Assembly (NCBI RefSeq): GCF_018350175.1
Contig: NC_058368.1
Coordinates: forward strand, 84,198,001-84,262,000
Reading direction: 5' to 3'
Length of the DNA: 64,000 nucleotides
From: Felis catus
Lineage: Eukaryota
Part shown: positions 850-61,200 of the stretch, piece after piece
Layout of the letters: every line of letters starts with the position of its first letter
How positions within the stretch are numbered: the first letter of the stretch is position 1
Translations under genes and position numbers: made by a program
The notes under the pieces: model-generated
Seen by the model: only the letters and a program-made list of their open reading frames with translations
What the model was told of the DNA's origin: nothing
Database searches by the model: none

Positions 850-981
850 CTATGCCAATAACTTCCACACACTTTGTCTCTGTACCAGTGCAGGTAAGAA
901 GAACTGGGTCACAGGAAATGTCATGCACATTGTAGCAGGCAGAACATTTAATTCCATTGGGTTTTGAGGACTTCCGAGGCA
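850..981 (-). pseudogene. Isolated 132-bp phase-1/phase-1 exon of a RoBo-1-like (LYPD8-cluster) LY6/uPAR gene, first half of LU domain 2; probably a gene remnant
   Basis: Acceptor tttctttcttcatttag| at 982-983 and donor |gtatgg at 849. Open frame (V)PRKSSKPNGIKCSACYNVHDISCDPVLLTCTGTETKCVEVIGI(G) has the PNG-x-x-C-x-x-C and C-T-G-x-x-T-x-C-V spacing of recalled rat RoBo-1 and parallels LYPD8 exon 43425-43562. No upstream exons found; the last exon would lie before position 1. Confidence 0.75.
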
Positions 982-1116
982 CTAAATGAAGAAAGAAAAT
1001 TTTCATTTTAAGGACAGGAAAAAAGGAGCTGAGAGCATTATTACCACCCACGGTTATTCCAGGATTCCTCTACCCAAAATCAAAATGATTTAAAATTAGG
1101 ATACCATGGAGGGTGC

Positions 1117-1138
1117 GGGGGGGGGGGGGGGGGGGGGG
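1117..1138 (+). repeat. G22 homopolymer
   Basis: 22 consecutive G after ggagggtgc. Confidence 0.95.
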
Positions 1139-1287
1139 AGAAGTATTAAGTGGGAATATATAGCCAAAAATAATCTTACAGAAATCTGGTTTATCTGCTT
1201 CTTTCATGAGATGGCCCTCTCTGCCCTGGCTGAAGAAAAAAATGCTTACATAATAGAAGATAATTTGTGATTTAAAAACTACTATTG

Positions 1288-2466
1288 AAGAATTATATGG
1301 TTTCAGATTTCACATTTAAGACCTTAATATATTTTTAGTTTATTTTTCTGTATGGTATAAAAGAGTGATCCAGTTTCATTCTTTTGCATGCAACTGTCCA
1401 GTTTTCCCAGCACATTTTTTTGAGAGACTGCTTTTTCCCCATTGTAAATTCTTGCCTTCTTTGTCATAGATTAATTGACCACATAAGTGTGGGCTTATTT
1501 CTCAGCTGTCTATTCTGTTCCATTGATCTATGTGTCTGGGATTTTTGTTTTGTTTTGTTTTTTGGGTTTTTTTCTGTTTGTTTGCTTTGTTTTGTTTTTC
1601 CAGTACCATACTGTTTTGATCACTGCAGCTATGTAGTGTATCTTGAAATCTGGGATTATGATATTTCCAGCTTTATTTCTTCTCAAGATTGCTTTGGCTA
1701 CTCAGAGTCTTTTGTGGTACAAATCTTAGTATTATTTGCTCTAGTTCTGTGAAAGATGTTGTGTTTTTATAGGGATTGCATATCTGTAGATTGCTTTGGG
1801 TAGTATGGACATTTTTTTTTTAATTTTTTTTTTCAATGTTTATTTTTGGGACAGAGAGAGACAGAGCATGAACGGGGGAGGGGCAGAGAGAGAGGGAGAC
1901 ACAGAATCGGAAACAGGCTCCAGGCTCTGAGCCATCAGCCCAGAGCCTGACGCGGGGCTCGAACTCACGGACCGCGAGATCGTGACCTGGCTGAAGTCGG
2001 ACGCTTAACCGACTGCGCCACCCAGGCGCCCCATGGACATTTTAACAATATTGGTTTCTTCCAGTCCATGAGCAAACATAGGAAATAATGTCTTTGACAT
2101 CAGCTATAGAAACATTTTCTATATATGTCTCCTGAGCAAAGGAAACAAAAGCTAAAATAAACTTGGGACCTCGCCAAAATTAAAAGCTTTTGCACAACAA
2201 AGAAAAGCATCAACAAAATAAACAAGCAACCTACTAAATGAGTGAAGATATTTGCGTATTATATATCCAATAAGGGGTTTATATTCAAAATATATAAAAA
2301 ACTTACACAAGTCAATACCAAAAAATCCACAAATAATCCAATTAAAAAATGAGCAGGGGACCTGAATAGACATTTTTCCAGAAAAGATACAGATGACCAA
2401 CAGACACATAAAAAGATGCTCAACATTGCTAACATCAGGAAAATGCAAATTAAAACCATAATGAGT
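1288..2466. mobile_element. L1 ORF2 fragment with 5' inversion: minus segment ~1288-2072, plus segment ~2073-2466; 3' end missing
   Basis: L1 ORF2 3'-region sequence on the minus strand switches to plus at ..ccatgagc|aaacatagg, then stops at the SINE at 2467. Confidence 0.8.
1816..2032 (-). mobile_element. Young felid SINEC (tRNA-derived) with 11-bp TSD
   Basis: GGGGCGCCTGGGTGG head, CT tract and A tail on minus; TSD atggacatttt at 1805-1815 and 2033-2043; CpGs intact. Confidence 0.95.
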
Positions 2467-2684
2467 GGGGCGCCTGGGTGGCACAGTCGGTTAAGCGTCC
2501 GACTTCAGCCAGGTCACGATCTCGCGGTCCGTGAGTTCGAGCCCCGCGTCAGGCTCTGGGCTGATGGCTCAGAGCCTGGAGCCTGTTTCCGATTCTGTGT
2601 CTCCCTCTCTCTCTGCCCCTCCCCTGTTCATGCTCTGTCTCTCTCTGTCCCAAAAATAAATAAACGTTGAAAAAAAAAATTAAA
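2467..2684 (+). mobile_element. Young felid SINEC without matching TSDs
   Basis: Complete SINE; left flank aaaaccataatgagt differs from right flank aaagactggggagcg. Confidence 0.95.
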
Positions 2685-3009
2685 GACTGGGGAGCGGTTG
2701 GAGGTCACCTATCTTTTCCTTCCTGAAAACAGGTTTTCAGGAAATGACAAAACCTAATTTCACACTCTGAATTCCAGGTCTCATTTTCTATAAGTAACCA
2801 TGAGCTACTTTGTCTCAGAGACAAAAACATATAAATGAAGCCTGTCCAAGAATCACCTTCAACTTCAATCCAAGTTTCTCCTGCTCAGCCTTTGTCACAA
2901 CCTCAAGATGAAAGATTAAAATGTTATGTGTTTCTTTCTTTGAAGAGATGAAAAGGGCTATTTTGCAGAGAGCCTGGCTTAACACAATGACAACAAGTTT
3001 TGAAGCAAG

Positions 3010-3150
3010 GCATTTCCCAGCTCTGTGGCCAAGTGTTGTGTGAACCTGGGCACAAGGTTTCACTATTCAGAGCCTCAGTTTCCTACTCTGCAGGGAAATA
3101 GTGATGCCTGCTTTGCAGGGTGGAAGTGAAGGCTTAAGGAGAGTGTGAAA
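3010..3150. mobile_element. MIR fragment
   Basis: Degenerate MIR core (tcccagctctg..gtgtgaacctgggc..agagcctcagtttcc). Confidence 0.55.
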
Positions 3151-6100
3151 TGACCATCACTGTGTAAACACAATGGACTTTGCCTCTGTCCACATCAGAA
3201 ACGTGTAAACAAAAATGTGCAGGTGTTGTTTGAATTTGAAAGAACAAGAGACAATGGGCCTATGGACTTGTTTAAATGTTGTATGTATGTCAATGTGGAT
3301 ATGAACGTCTGAGAGCCAAATCATAAGACAAGTGCATTCCATGTTTTCCCTCTGCCATCTCAACCCACCAGACATCTGACAGATGAACAGACACCCAAAA
3401 GCTCCCAGTGGTTTAGACTATGGGTCTGAGAGGTGCAATACAGGGTCCTCTCATGTGTGGATAGGAAGAAACATTGCATCTTTCTTTCCCTATCCTATAA
3501 CTGAAATGTAGTTTTTCTTTCCAAAAATGGAGTCCACAAACCACAGAAAAACCACCAACCCTTAGAAATTATTGAGGTTTTCCCATCATGTGACATCTGC
3601 AGATATATTCTTTGCCCTTATCAAGTACTTTCAGATTATGTCCTTATCAGTCCCCTGCAAGGGCCTGGTGACTGATGCATTCATAAAGAACCACATCTGT
3701 TCTATTCCGTACATTAGAGGAGTCTTCTAAGTGTATTCAATACAATTGTAATTTTATAAGGTTTGATTTTTCTCATGAGAAGGGGTTCATAGGTTCTACC
3801 ATCCTTCCTGGGTCACATATTATGGGAACCAGTGTTGCCACCCCACTTCTGTAAGTAGCAAAAGCACCAACTTCCTCTGAAACAGAACTTTGTATCCATG
3901 TCTCCAGGTCCATGAGGGAAGTATAGCCCAAGGCTATACATTTATAGTTCTCAGCCCTTTCTCCTAGTACTACCTGCCCATGAACTCCTGACCAGCTGAG
4001 GTGGCTGGAGATACAGGTGGTTTCTGGCAGGGATATGAGGCCAGGAGGTCAAACATACAGTGTGGACTTGGTCAAGATGTTCTCTAGTTTAATCCAAGTA
4101 TCTGTTGTCATCTAATGACACTAGTCATCCATCCCACCTGACTCACGGCATGCATGGTCTAGGACTTGAAGTGCAGGCTAGGCTCAGGAAATGATGTTCA
4201 GATGGAATGAGCCAGGTTTGTCTTCACTGATGGAGAGCTGTGAAGCCATCACTCGTCTACATGGAGTATAGAACATTAACATAGGGGCTGGGACCACCCA
4301 ACTCTGTGCCAACTTCCTGCTTCTCAGGGCAGGTCCTCAGTAAACCCTTCAGGGCTGTGGTTACTACAGGAAGCTGCCAGAGTGCCACTCAGAGGACACC
4401 ATTCCTGGAGGAAAGAGAAATAGTGAGAACACCTAAAGCATGGGAGTGTCTGAGGTTATGCCTTTTAGTTATGTCTCCCACCCACCTTCTACCTTCAGAA
4501 GTTCCCCCACAGAACCCCTTGCAGTGACCCCACTCTCTTAGATCAGTTTTGCTTATTCTTGTAACCAGAAACAACATTCTGTACCATGCCTGAAATAAAA
4601 ACCATGTCATGAGGAATTATCCCCATCCCGTCAGCCCAATTCCTGGTCACAGTTCTGAGAAGAACCCGCTCTTTTTTCTCCCTGACATTGCCTGAGGGAC
4701 AATGGGAAGGGAATAGAGAGGACTGTGGCTAAGCACACACACCTGGGAACCACTCACCAGCTTCTCTGGCTATCCATTCTCCCTCTGTAAAGTAGGGATA
4801 AGAACTGACCCCACTTCATAGATTTCTTTTCTGTGAGAGTAACGTGAGTCTACCTATACTCTCTGAGAAAAGCTCCTAACATCAGCACTAACTAGCATCT
4901 CTGTGTTCATGTATTTACTTTGGAAGATAAGGTAGCATTCCTTATGGAGCATTTGCTTCCTAACTAGGTTTCTGGACTCCAGGGATCAAAGACTCCATAC
5001 CCAGACCAGCTGGATACTGGGCTATAGAGCAGCCTCTCACAAGGCCAGTCAGGAGAGGTGGCAGCCCCTTTCTATAGACATGCAGTGGTCTTGCCCTGTG
5101 TCCTGAGACAACTTTAGGCTAGAAGAGAATCTTGGATGAACCCTAAGAAGTCTCTTCTTGGAATGGAGTCCTTCTCTTGTGAGACTTCCTCTGGTCAGAG
5201 GAATCTGACACCTGATCCATGAGTCTTCAGTGGGTTGAGTTAAATTGGGGGCAGTGGTATGCCCATCACAGGAAGTACCTAATATGCCAGGAAGCCAGGG
5301 CTGAGCCCCATGATGACTGGGTAAAGTGCCAATGTTCATACAGAATTCATAGAGGGAGCCTCTCTTCCCTTATAAGTCTGAGCACTCAAAAAGGGAATGG
5401 GCACAGTTACCATGCCTCATTCATAATAGTGGACCCTAATAGAGGGCTGGAAAGGAGTGGAAGAAGGAACAGAGCAATGTGGACCAGCCTAGTCAGAGCA
5501 GCTGATCCAGGTTGGGGAGACCCTCTATCTTCTGAGCCCAAAATAACATCCTTTTTGTTCAGCCAGGGTCTATCACCCAGTCCCTGGTCAAGGCTTTGCG
5601 ATTTGGGTCAGAAATGCCCTGGGCAAGTGGAGACAGAAGCAACAGAAGGATGGGGCTTCTGACAACAGAAGGTACAGGGAGAATGAGTAGGCATTGTTTC
5701 AGGAAAAGGAACAGATTTAGGACAAAGCAAACATCCTGTCCATGCTCCTTGTTTCTAGGTATTCTGCGCTACTTGAGAACATTGGATGTAACCAGAAGGC
5801 ATAGGACATCTCCTCACCTCTCTTGATCCTATTTTAGCGTGTGATGCCTCAGAGGTTTATTTGCTGCAGTGTGTGACCTTCTATGGAGAATTACCCCCTG
5901 GACCCAGGCCTACTTTACTCCCTGACTACTGTATTTGGTCAGGCAGTATGGACATGGTGTGGGCACAGAAATGAAGAAAAAAATGCCCACTGCTTTCATG
6001 GCAGTAACTTGGCAGGAGCCACAGGGCAAATGGCAACTAGGTCAGACCCATTATCCCATACATGGGAGGCCATTGTCATGGTCAAATGAGATGTAAACAC

Positions 6101-6679
6101 AACACTCAGCCGCTGAATGATCTCCTCACTGGCCTGCCCTTTCTCACCTTTACTGCCTTCACTCTCAGTTTTTATTCTCTGGCTTCTCCTTTTCTCAGTT
6201 TTTGGGGACCTCCAAGGTGGCATCTGCTATCTTGATTAAAAAAAAAAAAAACTAAAGAATGCATTAAGGGCTCAGAGAGGAGGCCAGCTTTGTGGAGCAG
6301 CTGGCACCTACTAAGAGATAAGGTGAAAGTTTCCACACAGTCAACATTCCAGCCAGAGAGTGGAGGACAGAGAGGTCTAGCACTGCCACCTGGGGCCTAT
6401 TTGACTTTGTACTTACTGGAGTCATCCAGGGTACTTTGTCACTTATGTTTCTTTTGGTGCCAAGAGGACTGTCCTTAGGACCCCTACCTCTGCCTGCTGG
6501 CCATGATGTTAGAATGCCCATTTCCTGGTCACACAGCTGGTCATGAGTAGGGTAGGAATGGGAGGCCCAAGTACAGGTGTAACTCATCTCTCACCACTCC
6601 CTGAGGAGTACAGTATTGAGAGAGGTCAGAGACCACCTTACTCCCTGGTCTAAAGGCTTCCAGGGCCAATGTGGGCTTT

Positions 6680-6870
6680 CATCCTCGTTCTGCTGTATGA
6701 CCCTTGTCTAGTGACTCAAACTCTCCTTCCTCAGTTTCCCCAGTTATAAAATGAGGATAAGATGGGAGTAATCACATGGAGTAGTTGTAAGGTTTTTCAT
6801 GAGTTAACATATATATAGCGCTTAGAGCAAACAGTGCCTGGCCCAAGGAAGCTCTCACCAAGAATTGCTG
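6680..6870. mobile_element. MIR fragment
   Basis: cctcagtttccccagttataaaatgaggataa..agcgcttagagcaaacagtgcctggc resembles the MIR core and tail. Confidence 0.6.
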
Positions 6871-7964
6871 CCATTGTTATCATTTATTATCAACTGTGTG
6901 CCTGAATTTCTAGGCAACAGTGAATGGGCACAGACCTTATCTGCAAAGAGGGAACGTAAGAGAGAAAAAGTACAGGGAACAGGTGTAGAGGCCCCCTAGA
7001 TATGAGGAGAATGCTCACCCAGCCCAAGCATTACACATGGTTGGCTAAGCTTGGTGCATTCTGGGGGTTGGGGGGGGCGGGAGACAGAGAGAGACATGGA
7101 CCCAACTGGACCAAATTCCTGCTTTCAGGTGCCATGTTCCTGGGACAGCACCAGCATAAAGCATGTGCATATAGGGCCCCTGAGTCAGAAACTCTATTAA
7201 TTTCCCACAGGTGGAAAGAGCAGTGAGCCTTACCTGGGGTCCATGAAGCCTAATGAGGCCCTCCACCATAAAGGAATCAAGAAGGCACCCAGGAAAGTTT
7301 CTGTCCACTGTGAGCCCAAGAATGTCCAGTGGCCAGGATGAGATGCAGGCAGCACTGAGACCAGACAGCCTCTGGGGGAGGCCAGAGTTAACCCAGGAGG
7401 GGATAGTGTCACTTTCATCATCCAGAATGTAAATCTATGGTTTCCTCATCTGGGTGAAGTGGTTGAAGTGGGGACTCTTGTGGGTGGAGGTACCTTTGGG
7501 CCAGATGCAAGAGCTTAGAGAGTGCAGACGGCAGAGCCAGACTCAGGTGAAGCATTGTGGGGACAGTGTGGTCTGCAAAAGGCTTTGCCCCATCTCCACA
7601 GTCCTCCCTCATCTACCATTTTTCCTTCTCTCCTTTTATGACTCAGGCATATGGGGATTCACCTGCAGGTTCTAAACAATGGCCTCTACTCCTCAGAAAC
7701 TGAAAGCCAAGTATTAACACGTTACATTCAGGTCAAGGCAGAGACCAAGTTCTAAAGGGTTTCACTTTTGTTCAAATCCTTTGATCATGTAAATACTAAC
7801 ACTTATATTTTTCCTAACAGTTTGTGAGATATATATATTTTTTCATATATATGATATATATTTTTCATATATAAAGATATGAATCTTTTTTCATATTACT
7901 GTTATATGGCTCAGCATTTATTACTTAACATTCAATTTGGGAGAACTTTTTTTCTCATTAAAAT

Positions 7965-8850
7965 ACTTTTTTAATTTAATTTCAAGTTAGTTAACATATA
8001 GTGTAGTATTGATTTCAGGAGTAGAATTTAGTGATTCATCACTTTCATATAACACCCAGTGTGCATCCCAACAATTGCCCTCCTTAATGCCCATCACCCA
8101 TTTAGCCCATCCCCCCCATCCACTTCCCTCCAACAACCCTCAGTTTGCTCTCTGTATTTAAGAACCTCTTATGGTTTGTCTCTCCCTCTGTTTTTATTTT
8201 TTCCTTTTCTTCCCCTGTGTTCATCTGTTTTGTTTCTTAAAGTCCACATATGAATGAAATCACATGATATTTGTCTTTCTCTGACTGACTTATTTCACTT
8301 AGCATAATACACTCAAATTCCATCCACTGTGTTGCAAATGGAAAGATTTCATTCTTTTTGATCACTGAGTAATATTCCATTGTATGTATGTACCATTTTT
8401 TCTTTATCCATTCATCAGTCAATGGATATTTAGGCTCTTTCCATAATTTGGCTATTGTTGATAGTGCTACTATAAACATTGGGGTGCATTACCCCCTTTG
8501 AATCAGCACCTTTGTATCCTTTGTATAGTTACCTAGTAGTGCAATTGCTGGATCATAGAGGATTTCTATGCCTAAATTTTTGAGGAACCTCCATACTGTT
8601 TTCCAGAGTGGCTGCACTAGTTTTCATTGCCACTAACAATGTACAATGGTTTCCCTTTATCCACATTTGCACCAACATCTGTTGTTTCTTGGATTGTTAA
8701 CTTTAGCCATTCTGACAGGTGTAAGTTGGCATCTCATTGTGGTTTTGATTTGTATTTCCCTGATTCAGAGTGATGTTGAGCACCTTTTCATGTGTATCTT
8801 AGCCATCTGGATATCTTCTTTGGAAAAGTGTCTATTCATGTCTTCTTCCC
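7965..8850 (-). mobile_element. 5'-truncated carnivore L1 (ORF2 C-terminus and 3' UTR)
   Basis: Poly-T at ~7965; ORF 8237-8479 reads as L1 ORF2 C-terminus ([24 protein letters not shown]). Confidence 0.9.
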
Positions 8851-9010
8851 CTTCACTAGACTATTTGGGTTTTAATTGTTACATAGACAAATCTTGTACC
8901 TCCCTTTCTGTGAGCTCCATGTGGTGGGATTTCCATCTACTTTGTTTACTCTTGCGCTCTCAGCACTTTTAATGCTAGTAGCTAGTCCTAGTTGGTGAAT
9001 GATTGTTCTT

Positions 9011-9617
9011 TTTTTTTTAATTTTTTAATTTTTTTTTTAAATTTACATCCAAGTTAGTTACTATATAGTGCAACAATGATTTCAGGGGTAGATTCCTTAA
9101 TGCCCCTTGCCCATTTAGCCCATCTCCCCTCCCACAACCCCTCCAGTAACCCTCTGTTTTTTCTCTATATTTAAGAGTCTATTGGGGTGCCTGGGTGGTG
9201 CAGTCGGTTAAGCGTCCGACTTCAGCCAGGTCACGATCTCGCGGTCCGTGAGTTCGAGCCCCGCGTCAGGCTCTGGGCTGATGGCTCAGAGCCTGGAGCC
9301 TGTTTCCGATTCTGTGTCTCCCTCTCTCTCTGCCCCTCCCCCGTTCATGCTCTGTCTCTCTCTGTCCCAAAAATAAATAAACGTTGAAAAAAAAAATTAA
9401 AAAAAAAAAAGTCTATTATGTTTTGTCACCCTCCTTGTTTTTATATTATTTTTGCTTCCCTTTCCTTGTGTTTATCTGTTCTGTGTCTTAAAGTCCTCAT
9501 ATATTTGTCTTTCTCTGACTGACTACTTTTGCTTAGCATAATACTCTCTAGTTCCATCCATGTAGTTGCAAATGGCAAGATTTCATTCTTTTTTGATTGT
9601 ATATATATATATATATG

Positions 9618-9655
<38 letters not shown>

Positions 9656-10103
9656 ACATCTTCTTTATCCATTCATCTATTGATGGACATTTGGGCTCTT
9701 TCTACTCTTTCCATACTTTGGCTATTGTTGGTAGTGCTGCTACAAACATTGGGGTGTATGTGTGCCTTCGAAACAGCATAACTGTATCCCTTGTATGAAT
9801 ACCTAGTAGTGCAATTCCTGGGTCGTAGGATAGTTCTATTTTCAATTTTTTGAGGAACTTCCATACTGTTTGCCAGAGTGGCTACACAGTTTGCATTCCC
9901 ACCAGCAGTGAAAAAGACATCCTCTTTCTCTGCATCCTCGCCAACGTCTCTTGTTGCCTGAGTTGTTAATGTTAGCCATTCTGACAGGTGTGAGGTGGTA
10001 TCTCATTGTGGTTTTGATTTGTATTTCCCTGATGATGAGTGATGTTGAGCATTTTTTCATGTGTCAGTTGGCCATCTGGATGTCTTCTTTGGAGAAGCGT
10101 CTA
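9011..10103 (-). mobile_element. 5'-truncated L1 with 17-bp TSD; contains a SINE and a (TA)n tract
   Basis: TSD ggtgaatgattgttctt at 8994-9010 and 10104-10120; ORF2 C-terminal peptides in ORFs 9441-9659 and 9842-10060. Confidence 0.93.
9184..9410 (+). mobile_element. Young felid SINEC inserted in L1 3' UTR
   Basis: Full SINE; gtctatt duplicated on both flanks. Confidence 0.95.
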
Positions 10104-10878
10104 GGTGAATGATTGTTCTTGATCTAAGAACACCATTTTTTTTAAAGAAAATATTTCATACCTCTTATATAACTTTTAAAATGTATGGGAAACAACATGT
10201 GATGATAGAATTCACCTTTACGGGCCACATTTCTTGAGTTTAGCCCCCTTTTTTGTGCTTTAATATACTTTGATATTTCTCTAAAAGAAGTATAAAATAC
10301 AATCAGTATCCTGAATCAAAAGAGCTGATATTACTTCTTTGGCATTCTAAGTAGACTTTTGACTAACTAGAACCTGGGCTGTACCCACTGTAGACATGAC
10401 CCAGGCTTCCACTTAACCTGACAGCATCATAAACACAGAGCTGCTCAGCTCCAAAGTACTCCATGGCCATCTCCAGCCTGAACTTCCTCAGGAAACACCT
10501 TTCCACACCTCTGATAGCTAGGTTTCTCATATGGTGAAGCAAACACACAAATATAAAATCAATCTCTTTTATTTGGATTCTGGAATATCTAAACAAGCAG
10601 GTGCCATCCAATTCCTGATGGACTCCAAAAAACCTCAGATACTGCATAGGAAGACTTCCTTCCACAAAGATATAAATAAGCAGAGGCAACACACACTTCC
10701 ACATGCATTCACACACAGGCACATTCACACTCAAATATTCATATACATTTAGAAGATAAAATAGAAGTCCTTGAGGAAGTCAGGGCAAATGGGCCTTATG
10801 AAACAGGAAAACTTCATGAAATAAGAAAAAAACCAAAAGCAATAATGAGGTGTAGAAATTGTTAAAAATATATATAGG

Positions 10879-10950
10879 GAGGGCACATTTTGGGATGAGC
10901 GCTGGGTGTTGTATGGAAACCAATTTGACAATAAATTTCATATTAAAAAA
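10879..10950 (+). mobile_element. Very short felid L1 3'-end insertion, followed by (TA)n to ~11020
   Basis: ttttgggatgagcgctgggtgttgtatggaaaccaatttgacaataaatttcatatt closely matches the 3' end of the full-length L1 at ~21030-21090. Confidence 0.85.
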
Positions 10951-10966
10951 TATATATATGTATATG

Positions 10967-11022
<56 letters not shown>

Positions 11023-11163
11023 AAAGAGGGTGAGATGAAGTATGGGAGCAGAGGGTTGAGAACAAGGGGTGTGGGAACAGAGGGAAGGAAATAGATATCA
11101 GGATCACCAACCTCACCTCACTATCATTCTTGACCACACCACCAGCAAAGTGATTGGGAAAAA

Positions 11164-13465
11164 GGAAAATGCTTGTCTGAAAACATAAATATTTCCACCA
11201 AAGCTAGTATTGCCCACTGAATGAATAGGTCCAATCAGGTAAGGTGTAAATGGTCCAAAACACCAAGTCAATTTTCAGGTTTCATGTGTCCTAAACAAAA
11301 TGTCCTAAAGCACCTGAGGTTGTGGTAGCCAGAAGCATGTTACAGGTGACAATATCCTAGATACCCTTCAGGAGAGTAACCTATTTATGGAATAAACCCA
11401 AATGTCTCAATTGACTTTGAAATTTCTGGTCTACAAAATCACATACATTCTCTTAACCTGAACTTGTAGTCCCAGAATGCTGAACACTATAGATGAGAAG
11501 GAAATAGAAAAATGGAAGTAGAACTTGAATGTGCAACATCAGTGATAAACAACTACAAAGTGGTCAGTCCTGTGGTGAATTTTTTTTTTCTCAACATGAG
11601 CCATAGGCAACACCATTTCAAGTTCTCTGATGCATTAATATTTTTAGAATGTTCAGTACTATAATCTGGATTTCATTGAAGCAAGTAAGGAATCTAGCCT
11701 TTGAAATTCCAGATTCAATCCCATTATAGTAACCTCAGCCCCAAATATCTCAACTAGCCGTAATGTCCCTACATATTTGTACATGGATGGTGTCCCTCCA
11801 TCTATATTACCAGTCTGCAAGGTAATTTGACCTCTATTCAGCACAGCTGTGTAGATCTAGCAGCATTCTAGCTGGTGTTTCAGTTTAATTTCATGCACCT
11901 CAACAAGCCCATCCACTTTCCAGGCTTGTCCTGCATCTAACCCAGCAATCCAACAGCCAGAGCAGCAAGGCCACCAACTCACTAGTCCACAACTACCAAC
12001 AGTTTATCCATCTGGTAGCTCACAGTCATCATGTATTAGCCAATATAGCATTCAGAATATTTCAACAGAACCTCAAAAAACTAATTGAAATCAAACTTAA
12101 ACCCCTACTGAGAAATATTTCTTCAAAATAGCATTTACCCGGCTTTGAACCTCCAGCACCTCCTCCTTCATTAACAGCCAAACTATAATAGAAATCAGTG
12201 CATGATTACATGTCCCCCAAATACTAATGCGGCAATGTCCTACAGTGAACATAGTATATATATCAAAGACACCAAGAAGATGAACAAATCATGCAGAGTC
12301 AGCCTTCATTTCTCATATCTACAAATCTTGGAGCATCTGCTGCCTCCAAAAGTATGACCAGGCAAGTGATTATATACTCCGCTTTTATTTGTTACCACTC
12401 TGCCAAATATAAAGTAATAGGCAACAGCTCTGCCAAGTCTCCTCAAGCAGTGGTCTTTCATCTCAACAAAATATCCATTCAAAATTTTCAGGTATATAAT
12501 ATAAAATTTCACTAAATGGGTGTCGTCATTTTTTGAACTTTCAAATCTCCTAACCTTCCTGACTGTTGTATAGACATAGTGCATTCAGCAGCTCATGGAT
12601 CCAACTTTCAAACATGAGAATAGAATAACAGAAGTGTAGAGAGTGAGCATTATTGGTTGTTATAGGCTGAATTATGTTTTCTAAAAAATCAGATTCTGAA
12701 GACCTAAACTCATTGCTGATTACCCCAAAATATGACTATATTTGGAGATAGGGCCTTTAAAAGGATAATTAGGTTAAAATGAGGTCATTAGTGAGGCCCC
12801 TAATTCAATATGACTGGTGTCTTTATAAGAAGAAGAGATTAGGACACAGTTATAGAGAGAAGATCATATGATGATACAAGGAGAGCGGTCTCAGAAGAAA
12901 GGAACTGTCCAATCAGTTCTTTGATCTCACATTTCTAGTTTATGGTACTTTACTATGGCATCCCTAGCAAACTAATACATTGGTAGATTAAAAAAAAAAA
13001 AAGAATAGAATAGCTTCAAAGAGAACTTAAGATTTTAAAAAAGTTCTGGATAAGCTAAAATCTAGAGTCAATGAAAGAAAGAATAGGCTAAATGGAATAT
13101 GTTTGAAAAAAATAAAATTTCATGTCACAAAGACTTGCTGTAGTGGTAAAGCTACACCACACAACTCCAGATTGACACTGGATACCTCAAGCAGAGACTG
13201 GATTTTTCAAATCTCAAGACCACATTTTAATCCCCATGACAAGTTTGAATTTGTAGGTTCTGTGCCACCAAAACCCAAAGAAAAAAGACTGAGCATACAA
13301 CCATAGAAGACTCAAGCCATAGATGAGCAAAGGGATTCATTGAAATTGTGCTGTGTCTACCTATTTGCCCACCCACTCTCAGTTAATTTTGAGCAGTGAG
13401 AACTGCCAAGGAATTTCTGAGCCAAAAGGCTCAATATATTCTCTGAACCCACATTCAAAGCTTAG
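11164..13465 (+). pseudogene. TAB2: TAB2 processed pseudogene, highly decayed, interrupted by an LTR at 12658-12979; ATG remnant 11250, stop 13418-13420
   Basis: Collinear, intronless peptides match recalled TAB2: PEVVVARSMLQ (CUE domain), [59 protein letters not shown] (ORF 12291), ALLV..LQRELKI..LDKLKSRVNE, RPHFNP..FVGSVPPKPK (ORF 13103) and EQ*ELPRNF* (NZF end). Many stops and frameshifts. Confidence 0.92.
12658..12979 (+). mobile_element. MaLR solo LTR (MLT1A-like) with 5-bp TSD
   Basis: Starts tgttataggctgaatt, ends ctagcaaactaataca; TSD ttggt at 12653-12657 and 12980-12984. Confidence 0.88.
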
Positions 13466-14915: not shown

Positions 14916-17900
14916 GGGAGAGGTTTTGGGGAAGATGGCAGCATAGGAGGACGCTGGGCTCACCGCGTCCTGCAGATCACTTAGATTCCAACCACACCTG
15001 CCTAAATAACCCAGAAAATCGCCAGAAGACTAGCAAAATGGATTCTCCAGAGCCAAGCATAGACAAGAGGTCCACGGAAGAGGGTAGGAAGGGTGGAGAG
15101 GTGGTGCATGCTACACAGACTGGAGGGAGAGAGCCGGGGTGGAGGGGCAGCCCGCCAGCAAAGCAGAGCCCCCGAGTCTGGCTTCCAAAAACGGAGGGGT
15201 CGGATGGAGTGTGTTCTGACAGCAAGTGGGACTTAACATCTGGAAGGTTGTAAGTTAACAGATCTGCTTGGAGAACGGGAGGGCTGGAGGACAACGGGAG
15301 GGAGAGTTGTTGAGCTCCGGACAACAGAGCACAGGTTTGCAGGGAACAATGGCGCTTGCCAGTGCCATCTCCCTCGCCCATCCCCCAGCCAAAATCCCAA
15401 AGGGAACCATTTCCTGTCAGGGAATATGCTTGCACCACGCAAACACCCAATGCTGCGCTTCTGTGGATCCATTCCTCCAGCGTTCTGACTCCCTTCCATT
15501 GCCTCAGGGCCCCTCCCAGAGCAGATCTCTGAAGGAAAAGTGAGCTGAGCCTGCCCTTCCCACCCCTGTACACATTGCCGATCCACCCCAGCTAATAAGC
15601 CAGATCCCCAGCACTACAAGCCTGGCAGTGTGCAAGGAGCCCAGATGGGGCACACCACCCTACAGTGAATCCCGCCCCTAGGAGAGGGGAAGAGAAGGTA
15701 CATACCAGTCTGACTGTGGCCCCAGCTGTGAGCTGGGGGCACACATCAGGTCTGACTGCGGCCCCACCCACCAACACAAGGTATTCAAGACAGCACGGGG
15801 AAATGCCCTGCAGTTCCTCAACACTCCAGGGACTATCCAAAATGAGGAAATGGAAGAATTCCCCTCAAAAAAACATCCAGGAAATAACAACAGCTAACGA
15901 ACTGATCAAAAATGATTTAAACAATATAACAGAAAGTGAATTTAGAATAATAGTCATAAAATTAATTGCTGGGCTTCAAAACAGTATAAAGGACAGCAGA
16001 GAATCCATTGCTACAGAGATCAAGGGACTAAGGAACAGCCAGGAGGAGATAAAAAATGCTATTAATGAGCTGCAAAATAAAATGGAGACAACCACAGCTC
16101 AGATTGAAGAGGCAGAGGAGGGAATAGGTGAACTAGAAGATAAAATTATGGAAGAAGAAGAAGTTGAGAAAAAGAGAGATAAAAAAATCCAGGAGTATGA
16201 GGGGAAAATTAGAGAACTAAGTGATGCATGAAAGAGAAATAATCTATGCATAATTGGTATTCCAGAGGAAAAAGAGAGAGGGAAAGGTGCTGAAGGTGTA
16301 CTTGAAGAAATAATAGCTGAGAACTTCCCTGAACTGGGGAAGGAAAAAGGCATGGAAATCCAAGAGAACTCCCTTCAGATGTAACTTGAATCAATCTTCT
16401 GCACGACATATCATAGTGAAACTGGCAAAATACAAGGATAAAGGGAAAATTCTAAAAGCAGCTAGGGATCAACATGCTCTAACATATAAAGGTAGACCGA
16501 TAAGACTCTTCACAGATTTTTCTACTGAAACTTGGCAGGCCAGAAAGGAATGGCAGGAAATCTTCATTGTGATGAACAGAAAAAATAGGCAGCCAAGAAT
16601 CCTCTATCCAGCAAATCTGTCATTTAGAACAGAAGGAGAGATAAAGGTCTTCCCAAACAAACAAAAACTGAAGGAATTTGTCACCACTAAACCAGCCCTA
16701 CAAGACATCCTAAGGGGGATCCTGTGAGACAAAGTACCAGAGACATCGCTACAAACATGAAACCTACAGACATCACAATGACTCTAAACCCATATCTTTC
16801 TATAATAACACTGAATGTAAATGGACTAAATGCACCAACCAAAAGGCATAGGGTCTCAGAATGGATTAAAAAAAAAAAAGACCCATCTATTTGCTGTCTA
16901 CAAAAGACTCATTTTAATTTTTTTTTCAACGTTTATTTATTTTTTTTGGGACAGAGAGAGACAGAGCATGAACGGGGGAGTGACAAAGAGAGAGAGAGAC
17001 ACAGAATCGGAAACAGGCTCCAGGCTCTGAGCCATCAGCCCAGAGCCTGAGGCGGGGCTCGAACTCCCAGACCGCGAGATCGTGACCTGGCTGAAGTCAG
17101 ACGCTTAACCGACTGTGCCACCCAGGCGCCCCAAGACTCATTTTAGACCTAAGGACACTTTCAGATTGAAAGTGAGGGGATGGAGAACTATTTATCAAGT
17201 TACTGGAAGTCAAAAGAAAGCTGGAGTAGCCATACTTATATCAGACAAACTAGACTTTAAAGGCTGTAACAAGAGATAAAGAAGGGCATTATATAATAAT
17301 TACAGAGTCTATCCATCAAGAAGAACTAACAATTATAAATGTCTATGCGCCGAATATGGGAGCCCCCAAATATATAAAACAATTACTCATAAACAGAAGC
17401 AACCTTATTGATAAGAATGTGGTAATTGCAGGGGACTTTAATACCCCCCTTAGAACAATGGATAGATCATCTAGACACATGGTCAATAAAGAAACAAGGG
17501 CCCTGAGTGATACATTGGATCAGATGGACTTGACAGATATATTTAGAACTCTGCATCCCAAAGCAACAGAATATACTTTCTTGTCAAGTGCACATGCAAC
17601 ATTCTCCAAGATAGATCACATACTGGGCCACAAAACAGTCCTTAATAAGTATACAAGAATTGAGATCATACTATGCATATTTTCAGACCACAATGCCATG
17701 AAGCTTGAAATCAGCCACAGGAAAAAGTCTGGAAAACCTCCAAAAGCATGGAGGTTAAAGAACATCCTACTAAAGAATGAATGGGTCAACCAGGCAATTA
17801 GAGAAGAAATTAAAAAATATATGGAAACAAACGAAAATGAAAATACAACAATCCAAACGCTTTGGGATGTAGCAAAGGCAGTCCTGAGAGGAAAATACAT

Positions 17901-20900
17901 TGCAATCTAGATCATCTCAAGAAACAAGAAAAATCCCAAATAAAAAATCTAAAAACACACCTAAAGGAAATAGAAGCAGAGCAGCAAAGACACCCCAAAC
18001 GCAGCAGAAGAAGAGAAATAATAAAGATCAGAGCAGAAATGAACAATATAGAATCTAAAAAAAAAAAAACAAAACGGTAGAGCAGATCAATGAAACCAAG
18101 AGATGGTTTTTTGAAAAAATAAACAAAATTGATAAACCTCTATCCAGGCTTCTCAAAAAGAAAAGGGAGATGACCCAAATAGATAAAATCATGAATGAAA
18201 ATGGAATTATGACAACCAGTCCCTCAGAGATACAAGCAATTATCAGAGAATACTATAAAAAATCATATGCCAACAAACTGGACAACCTGGAAGAAATGAA
18301 AAATTCCTAACATCCACACGCTTCCAAAACTCAATCAGGAGGAAATAGAAAGCTTGAACAAACCTGTAACCAGCGAAGAAATTGAATCAGTTATCAAAAA
18401 TCTCCCAACAAATAAGAGTCCAGGACCAGATGGCTTCCCTGGGGACTTCCACCAGACATTTAAAGCAGAGATAATACCTATCCTTCTCAAGCTATTCCAA
18501 AAATAGAAAGGGAATGAAAACTTCCAGACTCATTCTATGATGCCAGTATTACTTTGATTCCTAAACCAGACAGAGACCCAGTAAAAAAAAGAGAATTACA
18601 GGCCAATATCCCTGATGAATATGGATGCAGAAATTCTCAATAAGATACTAGCAAATCAAATTCAACAGCTTATAAAAAGAATTATTCACCATGATCAAGT
18701 GGGATTCATTCCTGGGATGCAGGGCTGGTTCAACACTCGCAAATCAATCAATGTGATTTGATCACATGTGATTGATCAATGTGATCAATCCATCACATGA
18801 ATAAAATAAAAGATAAGAACCATATGATCCTGTCCATCGATGCAGAAAAAATATTTGACTAAATTCAGCATCCTTTCTTAATAAAAACCCTCGAGAAAGT
18901 CGGGATAGAAGAAACATACTTAAACATCATAAAAGCCGTTTATGAAAAGCCCACAGCTAATATCACCCTCAATAGGGAAAAACTGAGAGTTTCCCCCTGA
19001 AATCAGGAACACGACAGGGATGTCCACCCTCACCGATGTTGTTTAACATAGTGTTGGAAGTGCTAGCATCAGCAATCAGACAACAAAAGGAAATCAAAGG
19101 CATCAAAATTGGCAAAGATGAAGTCAAGCTTTTGCTTTTTGCAGATGACATGATATTATACATGGAAATTCTGACAGACTCCACCAAAAGTCTGCTAGAA
19201 CAGATACATGAATTCAGCAAAGTTGCAGGGTACAAAATCAATGTACAGAAATAAGTTGCATTCTTATACACTAATAATGAAGCAACAGAAAGACAAATAA
19301 AGAAAATGATCCCATTCACAATTGCACCAAGAAGCATAAAATACCTAGAAATAAATCTAACCAAAGATGTACAAGATCTGTATGCTGAAAACTATAGAAA
19401 CCTTATGAAGGAAATTGAAGAAGATATAAAGAAATGGAAAAACATTCCACGCTCATGGGTTGGAAGAATAAATATTGTTAAAATGTCAATACTACACAAA
19501 GCTATCTACATGTTCAATGCAATCTCAATCAAAATTGCACCAGCATTCTTCTCAAAGCTATAACAAGCAATCCTAAAATTCATATGGAACCACAAAAGGC
19601 CCTGAAGAGCCAACGTAATTTTGAAGAAGAAGACCAAAGCAGGAGGCATCACAATCCTAGACTTTAGTGTCTACTACAAAGCTGTAAGCATCAAGACAGC
19701 ATGGTAGTGGCACAAAAACAGACACATAGACCAATGGAATAGAATAGAAACCCCAGAACTAGACCCACAAACGTATGGCCAACTCATTTTTGACAAAGCA
19801 GGAAAGAACATCCAATGGAAAAAAGACAGTCTCTTTAACAAATGGTGCTGGGAGAACCGGACAGCAACATGCAGAAGGTTGAAACTAGACCACTTTCTCA
19901 CACCATTCACAAAAATAAACTCAAAATGGATAAAGGACCTAAATGTGAGACAGGAAACCATCAAAACCCTAGAGGAGAAAGCAGGAAAAGACCTCTCTGA
20001 CCTCAGTCGTAGCAATCTCTTACTCGACACATCTCCAAAGGCAAGGGAATTAAAAGCAAAAATGAACTATTGGGACCTCATGAAGATAAAAAGCTTCTGC
20101 ACTGCAAAGGAAACAACCAACAAAACTAAAAGGCAACCAACGGAATGGGAAAAGATATTCGCAAATGACATATCGGACAAAGGGCTAGTATCCAAAATTT
20201 ATTAAGAGCTCACCAAACTCCACACCCAAAAAACAAATAATCCAGTGAAGAAATGGGTAGAAAACATGAATAGACACTTTTCTAAAGAAGACACCCATAT
20301 GGCCAACAGGCACATGAAAAGATGCTCAACATCGCTCCTCATCAGGGAAATACAAATCAAAACCACACTCAGATATCACCTCATGCCAGTCAGAGTGGCC
20401 AAAATGAACAAATCAGGAGACTATATATGCTGGCGAGGATGTGGACAAACGGGAACCCTCTTGCATTGTTGGTGCGAATGCAAATTGGTGCAGCCACTCT
20501 GGAAAGCAGTGTGGAGGTTCCTCAGAAAATTAAAACTAGACTTACCCTATGACCCAGCAATAGCACTGCTAGGAATTTACCCATGGGATACAGGAATACT
20601 GATGCATAGGGGCACTTGTACCCCAATGTTTATAGCAGCACTCTCAACAATAGCCAAATTATGGAAAGAGCCTAAATGTCCATCAACTGATGAATGGGTA
20701 AAGAAATTGTGGTTTATATATACAATGGAGTACTATGTGGCAATGAGAAAGAATGAAATATGGCCCTTTGTAGCAACGTGGATGGAGCTGGAGAGTGTGA
20801 TGCTAAGTGAAATAAGCCATACAGAGAAAGACAGATACCATATGGTTTCACTCTTATGTGGATCCTGAGAAACTTAACAGAAACCCATGGGGGAGGGGAA

Positions 20901-21116
20901 GGGAAAAAAAGAGGTTAGAGTGGGAGAGAGCCAAAGCATAAGAGACTCGTAAAAACTGAGAACAAACTGAGGGTTGATGGGGGTAGGAGGGAGGAGAGGG
21001 TAGTTCATGGGCATTGAAGAGGACATCTTTTGCGATGAGCACTTAATATTGTATGGAAACAAATTTGACAATAAATTTCATATATTAAAAAAAAAGAAAT
21101 TGGATTTATAATTTTA
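14916..21116 (+). mobile_element. Full-length, inactivated felid L1: 5' UTR, ORF1 ~15842-16727, ORF2 ~16778-20868, 3' UTR and poly-A; 16-bp TSD
   Basis: TSD aaaaaagcatttgaca at 14900-14915 and 21117-21132. ORF1 coiled-coil and RPRILYPA-like motifs; EN motifs GDFN and SDH; RT FADD (ORF 19036); C-terminal HCW-x-C region. Broken by stops, frameshifts and a SINE. Confidence 0.96.
16916..17132 (-). mobile_element. Young felid SINEC inserted in the L1 endonuclease region
   Basis: TSD aagactcatttt at 16904-16915 and 17133-17144. Confidence 0.95.
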
Positions 21117-39726: not shown

Positions 39727-39732
39727 TTTAAT
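39727..39732 (-). terminator. LYPD8: LYPD8 polyadenylation signal (ATTAAA)
   Basis: ATTAAA on minus ~110 nt after the stop codon, followed by GT/T-rich sequence. Confidence 0.7.
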
Positions 39733-54400: not shown

Positions 54401-56304
54401 AGATAATTGCAAATCGAAGACTTGAGATGGAAACAAAATGGTAGCTGAGATAGGAAAGAATTGGGTTAAGTCAGGGAGACATCTCTGATAAGTGAGAAAG
54501 AACCATGCAAAGGCAAGGAGGTCAGATGGCTCCCAGAAGAGGACAAAAAGCATGATCAAAAAAGGGCTCTTTGGTGAAAGACATGCCTTGTTTAAGGGAC
54601 TGAGCAGAGGAACACCAGTTTATGGAAGAATCACAAGGTTAGTATTCACCCCCTCCTGAGCTCACTTCAATATTTTATGTTGGTTCTTACAAGAAGCTTA
54701 GATTAGGTGCAAAGAGCACTAGACTTGTTGGCAGGATATGGGTGTTCAAAGTTAGTTTTGTAATTTACTAGCTATTATGTTAACTTTTCTCCATGAATCA
54801 CAACTTCCTTATCTATAAGATGGTAAAATTAGTAATAACTACCGAGAAGAAAATGGATGGTGACCTCCCGCCCTCATCTACAAAACATAAAGAGAAATAA
54901 TTCTCCACTGACTACATCATTTCTAACAAATGAGGTAGGTGAGCCAGACTAACAAACATCCCTTAAACATCATGCCAAGGTTATTGCGTCCATGTGGAAT
55001 AGAGTCAAAGTCATGTTGACAGGAAGATGTGCTTTCTTTATATAAGACTGAATTACATTGTCTTGGGAAGAATATTAACACCCACTTTTGCCCTCTGAGT
55101 AATGAGTGAGGTAAACTGCAGGTACTTCCACTATTGAGGAGTCTGAACTGGATCTGTTTACCTACCTCCCTTCTCATCCTTCCACTCTTCAGAACCAGAA
55201 ACGCTGGACAGAAAATGGCCTCCATTAGCAGCTGTTCAGAGCCCAAAGTGATGGTACTGGGGAGACTCCTGAAAGAAACAAAGCATGAGGTAGTTCATGT
55301 CTCTTGGTATTCAGTGGAGTTGAATTTCTCTGGAGAATGGGAAGTGGGGAAAGAAAGTAGAAGAGTGGAGCCTTCATTAAAAGAGAAAGAGGTATGGAAA
55401 TTAGGGAGAGGTGAGGAGAGATAGACACAGAAGAAAAAAGGATAATTCAGGACCTTCCTTCCCTCCTTCTGCCTCCTCTGTGAGGCCCAGGACAAAAGTG
55501 AGTTGACTCAGGATCTTTCTAGATGTAGCTCTCTGCTGCTTCCCACCAATCTGTCACAGAATACTCCTCCACCAATAGGCAAAACTGGCCAATTTCATTA
55601 AAGTGTGATAAATAGTTTCCAATCACTCTGATGGTGATAGTGATGACAAATGATAGTGCTGTTTTGTAGTGTGTATGTTTTTCTTTTACTATACTTTCTT
55701 TTAAAAAATAAAATATAGAAACCCTATGGAAGTTCCAGATGTTTGTTTGAGAGTCTAGGACATGAAACTCATTCTTCTGTTCAGCCAACATGTTCTAAAA
55801 ACAGCATCTAGAATGGAGAAGAGTTAGGAAAGACTGTCAGGACTAAAGGAAGGGGAAAAAAAGTACAAAGGCAGCTGAAAACAGACAAGTCATGAGACTA
55901 TCTCCTGTAGCTTGCTTCCAAGGCTGTGTCTATTAACTCATGGGTATAAGGACAGGATTTCCATGTCCTTGTGACTCATTCAAATGGAATGTTTATTTAG
56001 GAATATGATACCATTTAAGACATATTAAATGAGCTATTAAAGGATGAAACTATGAAAAGTCTATATTGATGTTGGTGACAATAATAGTGTATGGAACATA
56101 AAGCTGGTTTCTATTTCTGGTTCTCATGGGCTGCGCGACTTTGTCCCATGTCATCCCCCTTTTTGTACCCCAGGAAAGTACTATAAGTGAAGAATTCAGT
56201 CTAGTTTCAAGTGTATTATTCTAACAGAGCTAACCATTCTGGGGCTTCAGACCCCAGAGTTCAAGTCTTTTCTCTGAATTCAAATGCAGTCATTAAGATT
56301 AAGA

Positions 56305-58234: not shown

Positions 58235-61200
58235 TTTAATTTAATTTAATTTAATTTAATTTAATTTAATTTAGTTTATTAATTAATTTAATTTAATTTA
58301 ATTTAATTTTTTTATTTTAATATAATCTATTGTCAAATTGGCTAACATACAATGTGTATAGTGTGCTCTTGGCTTTGGTGCTCATCCCAACAGGTGCCCT
58401 CCACAATACCCATCACGTATGTTCCACTCTCCCCCACACCCATCAATCCTCTGTGTGTTCTCTGTATTCAAGAGTCTCTTATGGTTTGCCTCCCTCCCTC
58501 TCAGTTTGTAACTATTTTTCCCCTTCTCTCCCCCATAGTCTTCTGTTAAGTTTTTCAAGTTCCACATATGAGTAAAAACATATGATATGTGTATTTCACT
58601 GACTGACTTATTTCACTTAGCATAATACCTTCTACTTCCACACACACTGCTGCAAATGTCCAGATTGCATTCTTTCTCATTGCCAAGTAGTATTCCATTG
58701 CATATATAAACCACATTTTCTTTACCCATTCATCATTTGATGGATATTTAGGCTCTTTCCATAATTTGGCTATTGTTGAAAGTGCTGCTATAAACATTGG
58801 GGTACATGTGCCTCTATGCATCAGCACTCCTATATTCTTTGGGTAGATTTGTAGCAGTGTTATTGCTGGGTCATAGTGGAATTCTATTTTTAATTTTTTG
58901 AGGAACCTCCACACTGTTTTCAGGAGCAGCTACACCAATTTGCATTCCCACCAACAGTGTAAGAGGGTTTCCATTTCTCCAAATTCTGGCCAGCATCCGT
59001 TGTTTACTGAGTTGTTGATTTTAGCCACTCTGACCAGTGTGAGGTGATATCTCAGTGTGGTTTTGATTTGTATTTCCCTGATGATGAGTGACACTGAGCA
59101 TGGTTTCATATGTCTGATGGCCATCTGGATGCCTTCTTTGGAAAAGTGTCTAGTCATGTCTTCTGCCCATTTCTCCACTGGATTATTTGGTTTTTTTTTT
59201 TTGGATGTTGAGTTTGGTAAATTCTTTATGGATTTCGGATACTAATCTTTTATCCAATATGTCATTTGCAAATATATTTTCCCATTATGTCTGTTGCCTT
59301 TTGGTTTTGTTGATTGCTTCCTTCACAGTGCAGAAGCTTTTTATCTTCATGAGGTCCTAATAGTTCATTTTTGCTTTTAAGTCCCTTGCCTTTGGAGATG
59401 TGTCAAGCAAGAAATTGCTGCAGCTGAGGTAAAAAAGTTGTTTGCTTTCCCCTCTAGGGTTTTGATTGTTTCCTGTCTCACATTTAGGTCCTTCATCCAT
59501 TTTGAGTTTATTTTTTATTATGGTGTAAGAAAGTGGTTTAGTTTCATATCTTCTGCATGTTGCTGTCCAGTTCTCCCAACACCATTGTTAAAGAGACTGT
59601 CTTTTTTCCATTGGATACTCTTTCCTGCTTTATTAAAGATTAGTTTGCCATACTTTTGTGGGTCCAATTCTGGAGTCTCTATTCTATTCCATTGGTCTAT
59701 GTGTCTGTTTTTGTGCCAATACCATGCTGTCTTGATGATTACAGCTTTGTAGTAGAGGCTAAAGTCTGGGATTGTGATGCCTCCCGCTTTGGGTCTTCTC
59801 TTTCAATATTACTTTGGCTTTTTGGGGTCTTTTATGGTTCCATACAAATTTTAGGACTGTTTGTTCTAACTTTGAGAAGGATACTGGTGCAATTTTGATT
59901 GGGATTGCATTGAATGTGTAGATTGCTTTGGGTACTATTGACATTTTAAAATATTTACTCTTCCAATTCATGAGCCTGAAATGTTTTTTCCATTTCTTTA
60001 TGTCTTTCTCAATTTCCTTTATAAGTTTTCTAAAGTTTTCAGCATACAGATCTTTTACATCTTTGGTTAAGTTCATTCCTAGGTATTTTATAGTTCTTGG
60101 TGTGATTGTAAATAGGATCGATTTCTTGATTTCTCTGTTACTTTATTATTGGTGTATAGAAATGGAACTAAATTCTGTACCTTGATTTTGTATCCTGCAA
60201 CTTTGCTGAATATATGTGTGAGTTCTAGCAGCTTTTTGGTAGAGTATTTTGCTTTTTCAATGTAGAGTATCATGTCATCTGAGAAAAGTGAAAGTTTGAC
60301 TTCTTCTTTGCCAATTTTGATGTCTTTTATTTCACTTTGTTGTCTGCTGATGCTGCGACTTCCAAAACTCTGAAACAACAATGGTGAGAATGGACACCCC
60401 TGTCATGTTTCTGATCTCACAGGGAAAGCTCTCAGTTTTTCCGCATTGAGGATGATATTAGCAGTGCGCTTTTCATCTATGGCTTTTATTATGTTTAGGT
60501 ATGTTCCTTCTATTCTGACTTTCTGTGGGGGGGGCGGTTATGAAGAAAGGATGCTGTATTTTGTTAAATGCTTTTTTCTGCATCTATTGACAGGATCATT
60601 TGGTTCTTATCTTTTCTTTTATTAATGTGATGTGTCACATTGATTAATTTGTGAATATTGAACCAGCTCTGCAGCTCAGGATGAATCCCACTTGATCATG
60701 GTGAAAAATTATTTTTATATGCTGTTGAATTTGCTTTGCTAGTATCTTGTTGAGAATTTTTGCATCCATTTTCATCAGGGATATTGGCCTGTAATTCTCC
60801 TTTTTCGTGGGGTCTCTGTCTGGTTTGGGAATCAAGATAATGCTGGCTTCGTAGAATGAGTCTGGAAGCTTTCCTTCTGTTTCTATTTTTTGGAACAGCT
60901 TGAAAAGGATATTATTAACTCTGCTTTAAATGTCTGGTAGAATTCCCCAGGGAAGCCGTCTGGTCCAGGACTCTTATTCATTGGGCGATTTTGGATAACA
61001 GGTTCCATATCTTTCTTGTTATTGGTCTGTTTAAATTTTCTATTTCTTCCCCTTTGAGTTTTGGTAGTGTGTGGGTGTCTAGAAATTTGTCCATTTCTTC
61101 CAGGTTGTCCAGTTTGTTGGCATATAATTTTTCATCGTATTTTCTGATATTTGTTTATATTTCTGAGGAATTATTTGCAATAAGTCCATTTTCATTCGGG

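Follow-up and report, generated by a model that had tools for sequence, protein, structure and literature searches.

A probable SINE-mediated deletion in a RoBo-1-like LU gene downstream of LYPD8 in the cat

Within the window, by which we mean the whole 64,000-nt stretch of cat DNA that was analysed, the exon at 981-850 on the minus strand is, by sequence comparison, exon 4 of a single-copy eutherian LU gene of the RoBo-1-like type, situated downstream of LYPD8 and on the same strand. The locus is best read as a young pseudogene in which exon 4 has not yet decayed. Its disabling lesion is the loss of the start codon, signal peptide and domain 1, and the upstream joins contain no ATG in the LU frame. 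Exon 4 is present and exons 1-3 are absent; the upstream exon ends lie at 4059 and 11381, and a SINE without a target-site duplication (TSD) cuts off an L1. We consider it likely that the exons were lost through recombination between two SINEs, an event of roughly the last 5 Myr, and that the young pseudogene is what remains. The features on which this account draws are as follows.

850..981, minus strand: coding exon 4 of the RoBo-1-like gene (first half of LU domain 2), phase 1-1, with Q>R and P>S relative to Panthera
982..1296, minus strand: 3' end of intron 3, a flank conserved with caniform genomic read-through ORFs (79% amino acid identity over 1051-782)
1297..2466, plus strand: old L1 with a 5' inversion (1297-2073 inverted, ~2085-2466 sense), which stops at the SINE without its poly(A) tail and ~700 nt of 3' end
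1819..2032, minus strand: young SINE with an intact TSD, inserted in the inverted L1 arm and serving as internal control
2467..2684, plus strand: young SINEC_Fc1-type SINE, the putative deletion junction, with no TSD and followed by non-L1 DNA
4111..4059, minus strand: 3' end of an upstream exon of 5' UTR type that is retained (match to 4058), with donor CT/GTATGT at 4059/4058; matches the N-terminal extension of star-nosed mole P0036
11444..11381, minus strand: 3' end of another exon-like stretch retained upstream, with a weak donor AG/GTTACT at 11381/11380; matches the N-terminal extension of meerkat P0012
47885..39842, minus strand: LYPD8, an intact 256-aa model with exons 47885-47831, 47445-47326, 45509-45342 (acceptor assumed), 43562-43425 and 40131-39842; a neighbour, not a remnant

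The surviving exon and its gene family

A sequence-only reading of this DNA had described a 132-nt exon with clean splice sites, an open frame and five LU-spaced cysteines, assigned it to a RoBo-1-like LU paralog and placed it on the strand of LYPD8; on all of these points it was correct. The exon is preceded by a polypyrimidine tract and AG at 983-982 and followed by GT at 849-848. Phase 1 is open (PRKSSKPNGIKCSACYNVHDISCDPVLLTCTGTETKCVEVIGI), with cysteines at residues 12, 15, 23, 30 and 37 that show the LU spacing of the first half of the domain and align with those of the orthologs. Altogether 42 of its 44 residues are those of the intact 199-aa lion/tiger protein (95% over 44 aa against lion/jaguar by tblastn), and the tblastn identity of 95% to Panthera/Leopardus compares with 29% to the LYPD8 exon. 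When the 43-residue exon 4 peptide was used as a protein query, four candidates came up, every one of them RoBo-1-like or a read-through of exon 4 (E 9e-20 to 4e-17), so the resemblance is not due to chance. Against Pfam UPAR_LY6 the exon alone reaches 16.1 bits (E 0.016), short of the gathering score of 24.8, as would be expected of half a domain; the full ortholog P0003 scores 33.6 bits. In a tree of 31 rows, built from 43 columns only, exon 4 pairs with Lynx (95/81) inside the starred feliform clade (98/95). A small cat as source agrees with this grouping and with the young SINEC_Fc-type elements.

The exon had also been called undamaged. Its frame and splice sites are indeed intact; each of the two differences from Panthera, however, alters a residue. 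The Q>R change is common to lynx and frequent in primates. Position 13, the site of P>S, is Pro in 100 and Ser in none of the 104 homologs that could be aligned (of 110, and not independent of one another), and the change suggests relaxed constraint. Two residue changes are seen where 0.1-2 would be expected over 1-10 Myr. Under neutrality, the chance that exon 4 would carry no stop, frameshift or splice lesion is 0.98-0.64 over the same period, given an assumed indel ratio of 0.12 and assumed rates of 1-2.2e-9 per site per year. Intactness thus calls for no explanation of its own, contrary to the earlier premise: it is what neutral survival predicts, and no selection is needed to account for it.

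Comparison with carnivore RoBo-1-like genes (Panthera, Neofelis, Suricata, bears, otter; XP_042760991.1, XP_042814320.1, XP_029798757.1), which encode 199-aa proteins with Pfam UPAR_LY6, shows both what is shared and what is missing. The cat locus has an exon 4 peptide 84-95% identical to theirs with equal exon boundaries, and keeps the intron flanks and upstream exon ends. Unlike them, it is without the signal exon and both domain-1 exons, and no protein is expected from it.

All 19 members of the four clusters that hold the closest relatives of exon 4 were inspected. They include 199-aa proteins from lion/jaguar, tiger/clouded leopard, meerkat and bears and partial models from Geoffroy's cat, leopard, snow leopard and Iberian lynx, with neither a Felis protein nor a LYPD8 fusion protein among the 19. 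Proteins of puma, cheetah, leopard-cat and other lynxes are likewise absent from these clusters, so that the missing cat protein is not specific to the cat lesion. With a full-length query, 42 of 90 candidates were relatives (anteater, moles, bats, pig, whales, primates, rabbits and rodents), as were 6 of the 9 short candidates, and no Felis protein appeared in these protein searches either. Since relatives span anteater to rodents, the gene is widespread in eutherians and not specific to rodents.

The gene is probably LYPD9, a name suggested by its position and the human gap; none of the relatives recovered in the protein searches carries that name. The great-ape RoBo-1-like cluster has 12 members, 11 of them named and none human, and human LYPD9P is catalogued as a pseudogene (PMC10159366). 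Mouse Lypd9 (4930504O13Rik) is placed in the Lypd8 band (PMC4839075), and is described as testis-expressed with a pseudogene as its syntenic human counterpart (PMC6842137). The case for mouse Lypd9 and human LYPD9P as counterparts draws on the Lypd8 band in mouse and on the human gap in the great-ape cluster. The mouse locus differs in holding several paralogs, and mouse LYPD9 is predicted to be GPI-anchored whereas the carnivore proteins have no such tail.

The hydrophobic C-terminal tail seen in the pig and primate proteins (P0104, P0027) is missing from the carnivore orthologs (P0003, P0009, P0017, P0021), which end at about residue 199, and a switch from a GPI-anchored to a secreted protein in Carnivora is likely, going by these models. 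Among the canid proteins (P0026, P0047, P0081-P0087, P0039), the dog, dingo and jackal models have no 5' exons, and a cysteine that is otherwise conserved is replaced in them (C>H or C>R). In the raccoon-dog model a piece of L1 stands where exon 4 should be, and at least two sequence types of the RoBo-1-like gene are present in dog. The gene seems to have been broken independently in canids, to judge from these predicted proteins.

The missing exons and their upstream bracket

Exon-wise tblastn of five orthologs (25 queries) against both strands of the whole window returned a match at ortholog level (84-95%) for exon 4 only, exons 1 and 3 matching just the paralogous exons of LYPD8 (26-52%) or short chance pieces. 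In a codon-aware scan, which counts the fewest base changes per codon, the best scores of exons 1, 2, 3 and 5 from two orthologs fell within the shuffled range; exon 4, as control, scored 2 and 4 versus 48-54. Ten-residue pieces, which tolerate frameshifts, gave the same picture in 982-4058: all 11 pieces of exons 1-3 need 7-11 base changes and all four control pieces of exon 4 need 0-1. Degenerate copies of exons 1-3 gave nothing above chance in tblastn, profile HMM (47 sequences) or codon-aware scans of the window, and no remnant of the signal-exon acceptor or Kozak sequence was found, the best candidate having 4 mismatches of 20. Exon 5 is not in 1-849 by tblastn or codon-aware scan and is expected left of the window. 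The absence of signal and domain-1 exons, noted by eye in the sequence-only reading, is confirmed by the agreement of tblastn and codon-aware scans over both strands of the whole window, and a TBLASTN comparison of the kind that it proposed, run here with five orthologs against the window, yields an LU-family match for the peptide and no intact signal or domain-1 exons.

Two plus-strand matches were set aside as below ortholog level. One, at 54945-55070, is a weak profile match to the RoBo-1-like exon 3/4 junction region (E 0.005) that is interrupted by a stop; the other, near 56110 and within 56087-56140, is a brief 'MGCAT' match to exon 5 with E above 1.9. Either they are due to chance or a very old LU remnant lies here, upstream of LYPD8 on the opposite strand.

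The loss is bracketed by two upstream exon ends. The N-terminal extension of the meerkat model matches 11444-11381 with 9 changes in 21 codons, a level at which none of 300 shuffles scored 16 or below (best shuffle 17). That of the star-nosed mole matches 4111-4058 with 10 changes in 18 codons, where none of 1000 shuffles scored 10 or below (best shuffle 11); over 16 codons the match is weaker, with 5 of 1000 shuffles equally good, and it was drawn from 219 scanned pieces. On sequence similarity we regard the star-nosed-mole match as good, not certain. The GT donor at 4059/4058 sits exactly at the junction predicted by all four extended models inspected, two codons before the signal Met. Together, the two brackets place the lost exons within 982-4058. 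The novel N-termini of dog models have no match in the window, nor do the primate and hamster extensions, and no Pfam family was found in the six frames of 11031-12600. Joining either upstream exon (donor at 11381 or 4059) to 981 gives no ATG in the LU frame, so no LU protein is expected from the locus. An inversion carrying exons 1-3 to the left of the window was set aside as unlikely because all surviving pieces, exon 4 as well as the ends of the upstream exons, keep a collinear order on a single strand.

The SINE junction and accounts of the loss

An L1 insertion that is 5'-inverted by twin priming must end in its 3' UTR and poly(A). At the position of 2466, the five other L1 copies that extend this far run on as L1; the copy at 1297-2466 does not, and the DNA after 2684 has no L1 match within the window. 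A survey of SINEs in the window gave 16 matches, and 14 were examined after two short partial ones were dropped. A TSD of 11-14 nt flanks four of the five young SINEs, 2467-2684 being the sole young copy without one. A missing TSD is weak evidence by itself, since a TSD was called in five of the nine older SINEs and no call could be made for the other four. An endonuclease-type TT/AAAA lies 15 nt before the 5' end of the SINE at 2467-2684, where the lost duplication would begin; sites of this type occupy 320 of 9115 window positions (3.5%) and 42 of 340 in the L1 piece (12%).

This 218-nt SINE is 94-98% like the other copies in the window. It differs from the young consensus at 2 of 183 positions, both CpG, within a range of 0-9 of 183 among young copies, and no subfamily switch is visible inside it. 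The subtype IIB/SINEC_Fc1 has been dated to about the last 5 Myr (PMC4084570). The young consensus has G at the A-box site taken as the IIB/SINEC_Fc1 marker, an assignment resting on the text of that paper and not its figure, and in the SINE at 2467-2684 the marker site is one of the two CpG changes.

Other candidate junctions in 982-11380 were set aside: flank duplications are present both at the L1 of 9040-10104 and at the L1 tail of 10879-11025, and the older piece at 7947-8873, which has none, lies upstream of the 4059 bracket.

Some further repeats were noted. The SINEs at 1819-2032 and 2467-2684 are 97% identical, inverted and 434 nt apart, about 840 nt upstream of the exon 4 acceptor; inverted SINE pairs can form RNA hairpins and are often unstable. 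A run of 22 G stands at 1117-1138 (plus strand), 135 nt upstream of the exon 4 acceptor. Long decayed L1 copies at 15600-21093 (plus) and 58378-63700 (minus) are 83% alike across 3.9 kb, and both contain a young SINE.

In the sequence of events that we propose, two co-oriented young SINEs would have been present at the outset, one in the L1 of intron 3 and the other in the intron before the signal exon. Recombination between them would remove the 3' end of the L1, the signal exon and both domain-1 exons and leave one hybrid SINE, an event that may date to roughly the last 5 Myr; a transcript from the gene's own upstream exons would then splice directly to 981. Exon 3 persists in the Lynx pardinus and Leopardus geoffroyi models. 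The recent loss of the gene's 5' half, one of the two possibilities that the earlier reading had raised, is thereby supported, with the TSD-less SINE as the candidate breakpoint. Alu recombination-mediated deletion (ARMD) is reported to have removed start-codon exons, for example in chimpanzee NBR2 and HTR3D, with deletion sizes of 0.1-32 kb (PMC2041999). The cat locus resembles ARMD in the single residual SINE at the junction, the loss of coding exons including the start codon and an adequate size range. It differs in that a carnivore tRNA-derived SINE rather than an Alu is involved, and the pre-deletion allele is a reconstruction.

An assembly error is one alternative: the animal may carry an intact gene from which the assembler dropped exons 1-3 by jumping between co-oriented young SINEs. 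The close likeness of the 218-nt junction repeat to other copies in the window, together with the intact frame and splice sites of exon 4, would fit such a mis-join. We nevertheless consider it improbable, given that the 64 kb contain no N, suggesting a long-read assembly that spans such repeats, that the clusters inspected in full hold no Felis protein with exons 1-3 in spite of several annotated cat assemblies, and that P>S falls at a near-invariant site. A real deletion could also have arisen from a single SINE insertion with loss of target DNA, or from an unrelated adjacent break, with the same young pseudogene as outcome. A single insertion likewise yields one TSD-less SINE, and AAAG, compatible with a nick site, follows the tail of the copy at 2467-2684; however, this SINE is full length, its endonuclease-type site 15 nt before the 5' end has a chance of 3.5-12%, and all four intact young copies start their TSD at the equivalent position. 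We give little credence to this origin.

More room has to be left for the proposal that in small cats the gene had died, or was dying, before the deletion, which then cut an existing pseudogene; this is compatible with SINE recombination, and we regard it as a tentative possibility, short of an even chance. Felid models of 199 aa occur in Pantherinae only, the Leopardus model begins inside exon 3, and that of Lynx pardinus is incomplete, carrying further changes and a gap of one residue. Since other small cats (puma, cheetah and leopard-cat in the clusters) also lack annotated proteins, the gene may have been failing before the deletion, and it looks broken in canids and has no human member in the great-ape cluster. 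However, Panthera pardus and P. uncia have partial models too, although those of their congeners are full length, so a partial model can reflect poor annotation.

LYPD8 read-through and the meaning of the loss

The sequence-only reading had raised the possibility that exon 4 is reached by read-through splicing from LYPD8. In the form weighed here, exon 4 is kept because the LYPD8 donor at 45342 (or 43425) is spliced to 981, giving a secreted chimera of LYPD8 domain 1 and RoBo domain 2. The two genes are in tandem on the same strand and both joins are open, as had been predicted for 45342, but every LU exon in the window is phase 1-1 and the in-frame fit is therefore uninformative. The carnivore orthologs end without a hydrophobic tail, as a secreted product would, and human read-through fusions extend over distances that include the 44 kb needed here, half of them being under 26 kb and three quarters under 54 kb (PMC3041646). 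Against this, LYPD8 carries a stop of its own as well as poly(A) signals at 39732, 39124 and 39074, and on the way from the LYPD8 donor to 981 there are 108 acceptor-like sites. Human read-through fusions use the last donor in 54% of cases and donors upstream of the last-but-one exon in 25% (PMC3041646), and the commonest pattern would here add an unpaired half-domain. The resemblance to human read-through chimeras is that of tandem same-strand neighbours with compatible phase at a distance in range (PMC3041646); the proposed cat join would differ by skipping two LYPD8 exons as well as the poly(A) sites. No chimeric protein is found among the relatives in the protein searches (the nearest 19 cluster members and the wider searches), intactness needs no selection, and P>S suggests relaxed constraint. 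We judge it very improbable that read-through explains the exon, and just as improbable that capture by LYPD8 after SINE-mediated loss has produced a new secreted, tail-less two-domain LU protein in the cat gut in the last few million years. A function for the chimera is unlikely, with trace-level splicing possible. Of 24 sequencing runs listed as possibly holding exon 4, 20 contain all of only three sampled words and three are on record as RNA, which is not evidence of expression. In LYPD8 itself, the second domain-1 exon has two in-frame candidate acceptors 30 nt apart (45539 and 45509), and three LYPD8 exons scored nothing in the Pfam UPAR_LY6 scan.

Our literature search found no paper on the cat locus, though supplements of the cited papers and structural-variant tables for the cat could list the deletion. 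The finding opens no long-standing question. It is best read, on the window's sequence, as a recent gene loss of an ordinary kind whose scar is unusually clear, a case of exon loss by SINE recombination in a carnivore. If that reading is true, it would show how an LU gene that has received little study was lost in the cat lineage, by a clear mechanism and at a datable time, and its junction could be typed by one PCR. The finding would carry greater weight if the chimera proved real, and a deletion polymorphic among cats would constitute a natural knockout. If LYPD9P is orthologous as well, the cat would be a third lineage, along with human LYPD9P and the broken canid models, in which the gene appears dispensable.
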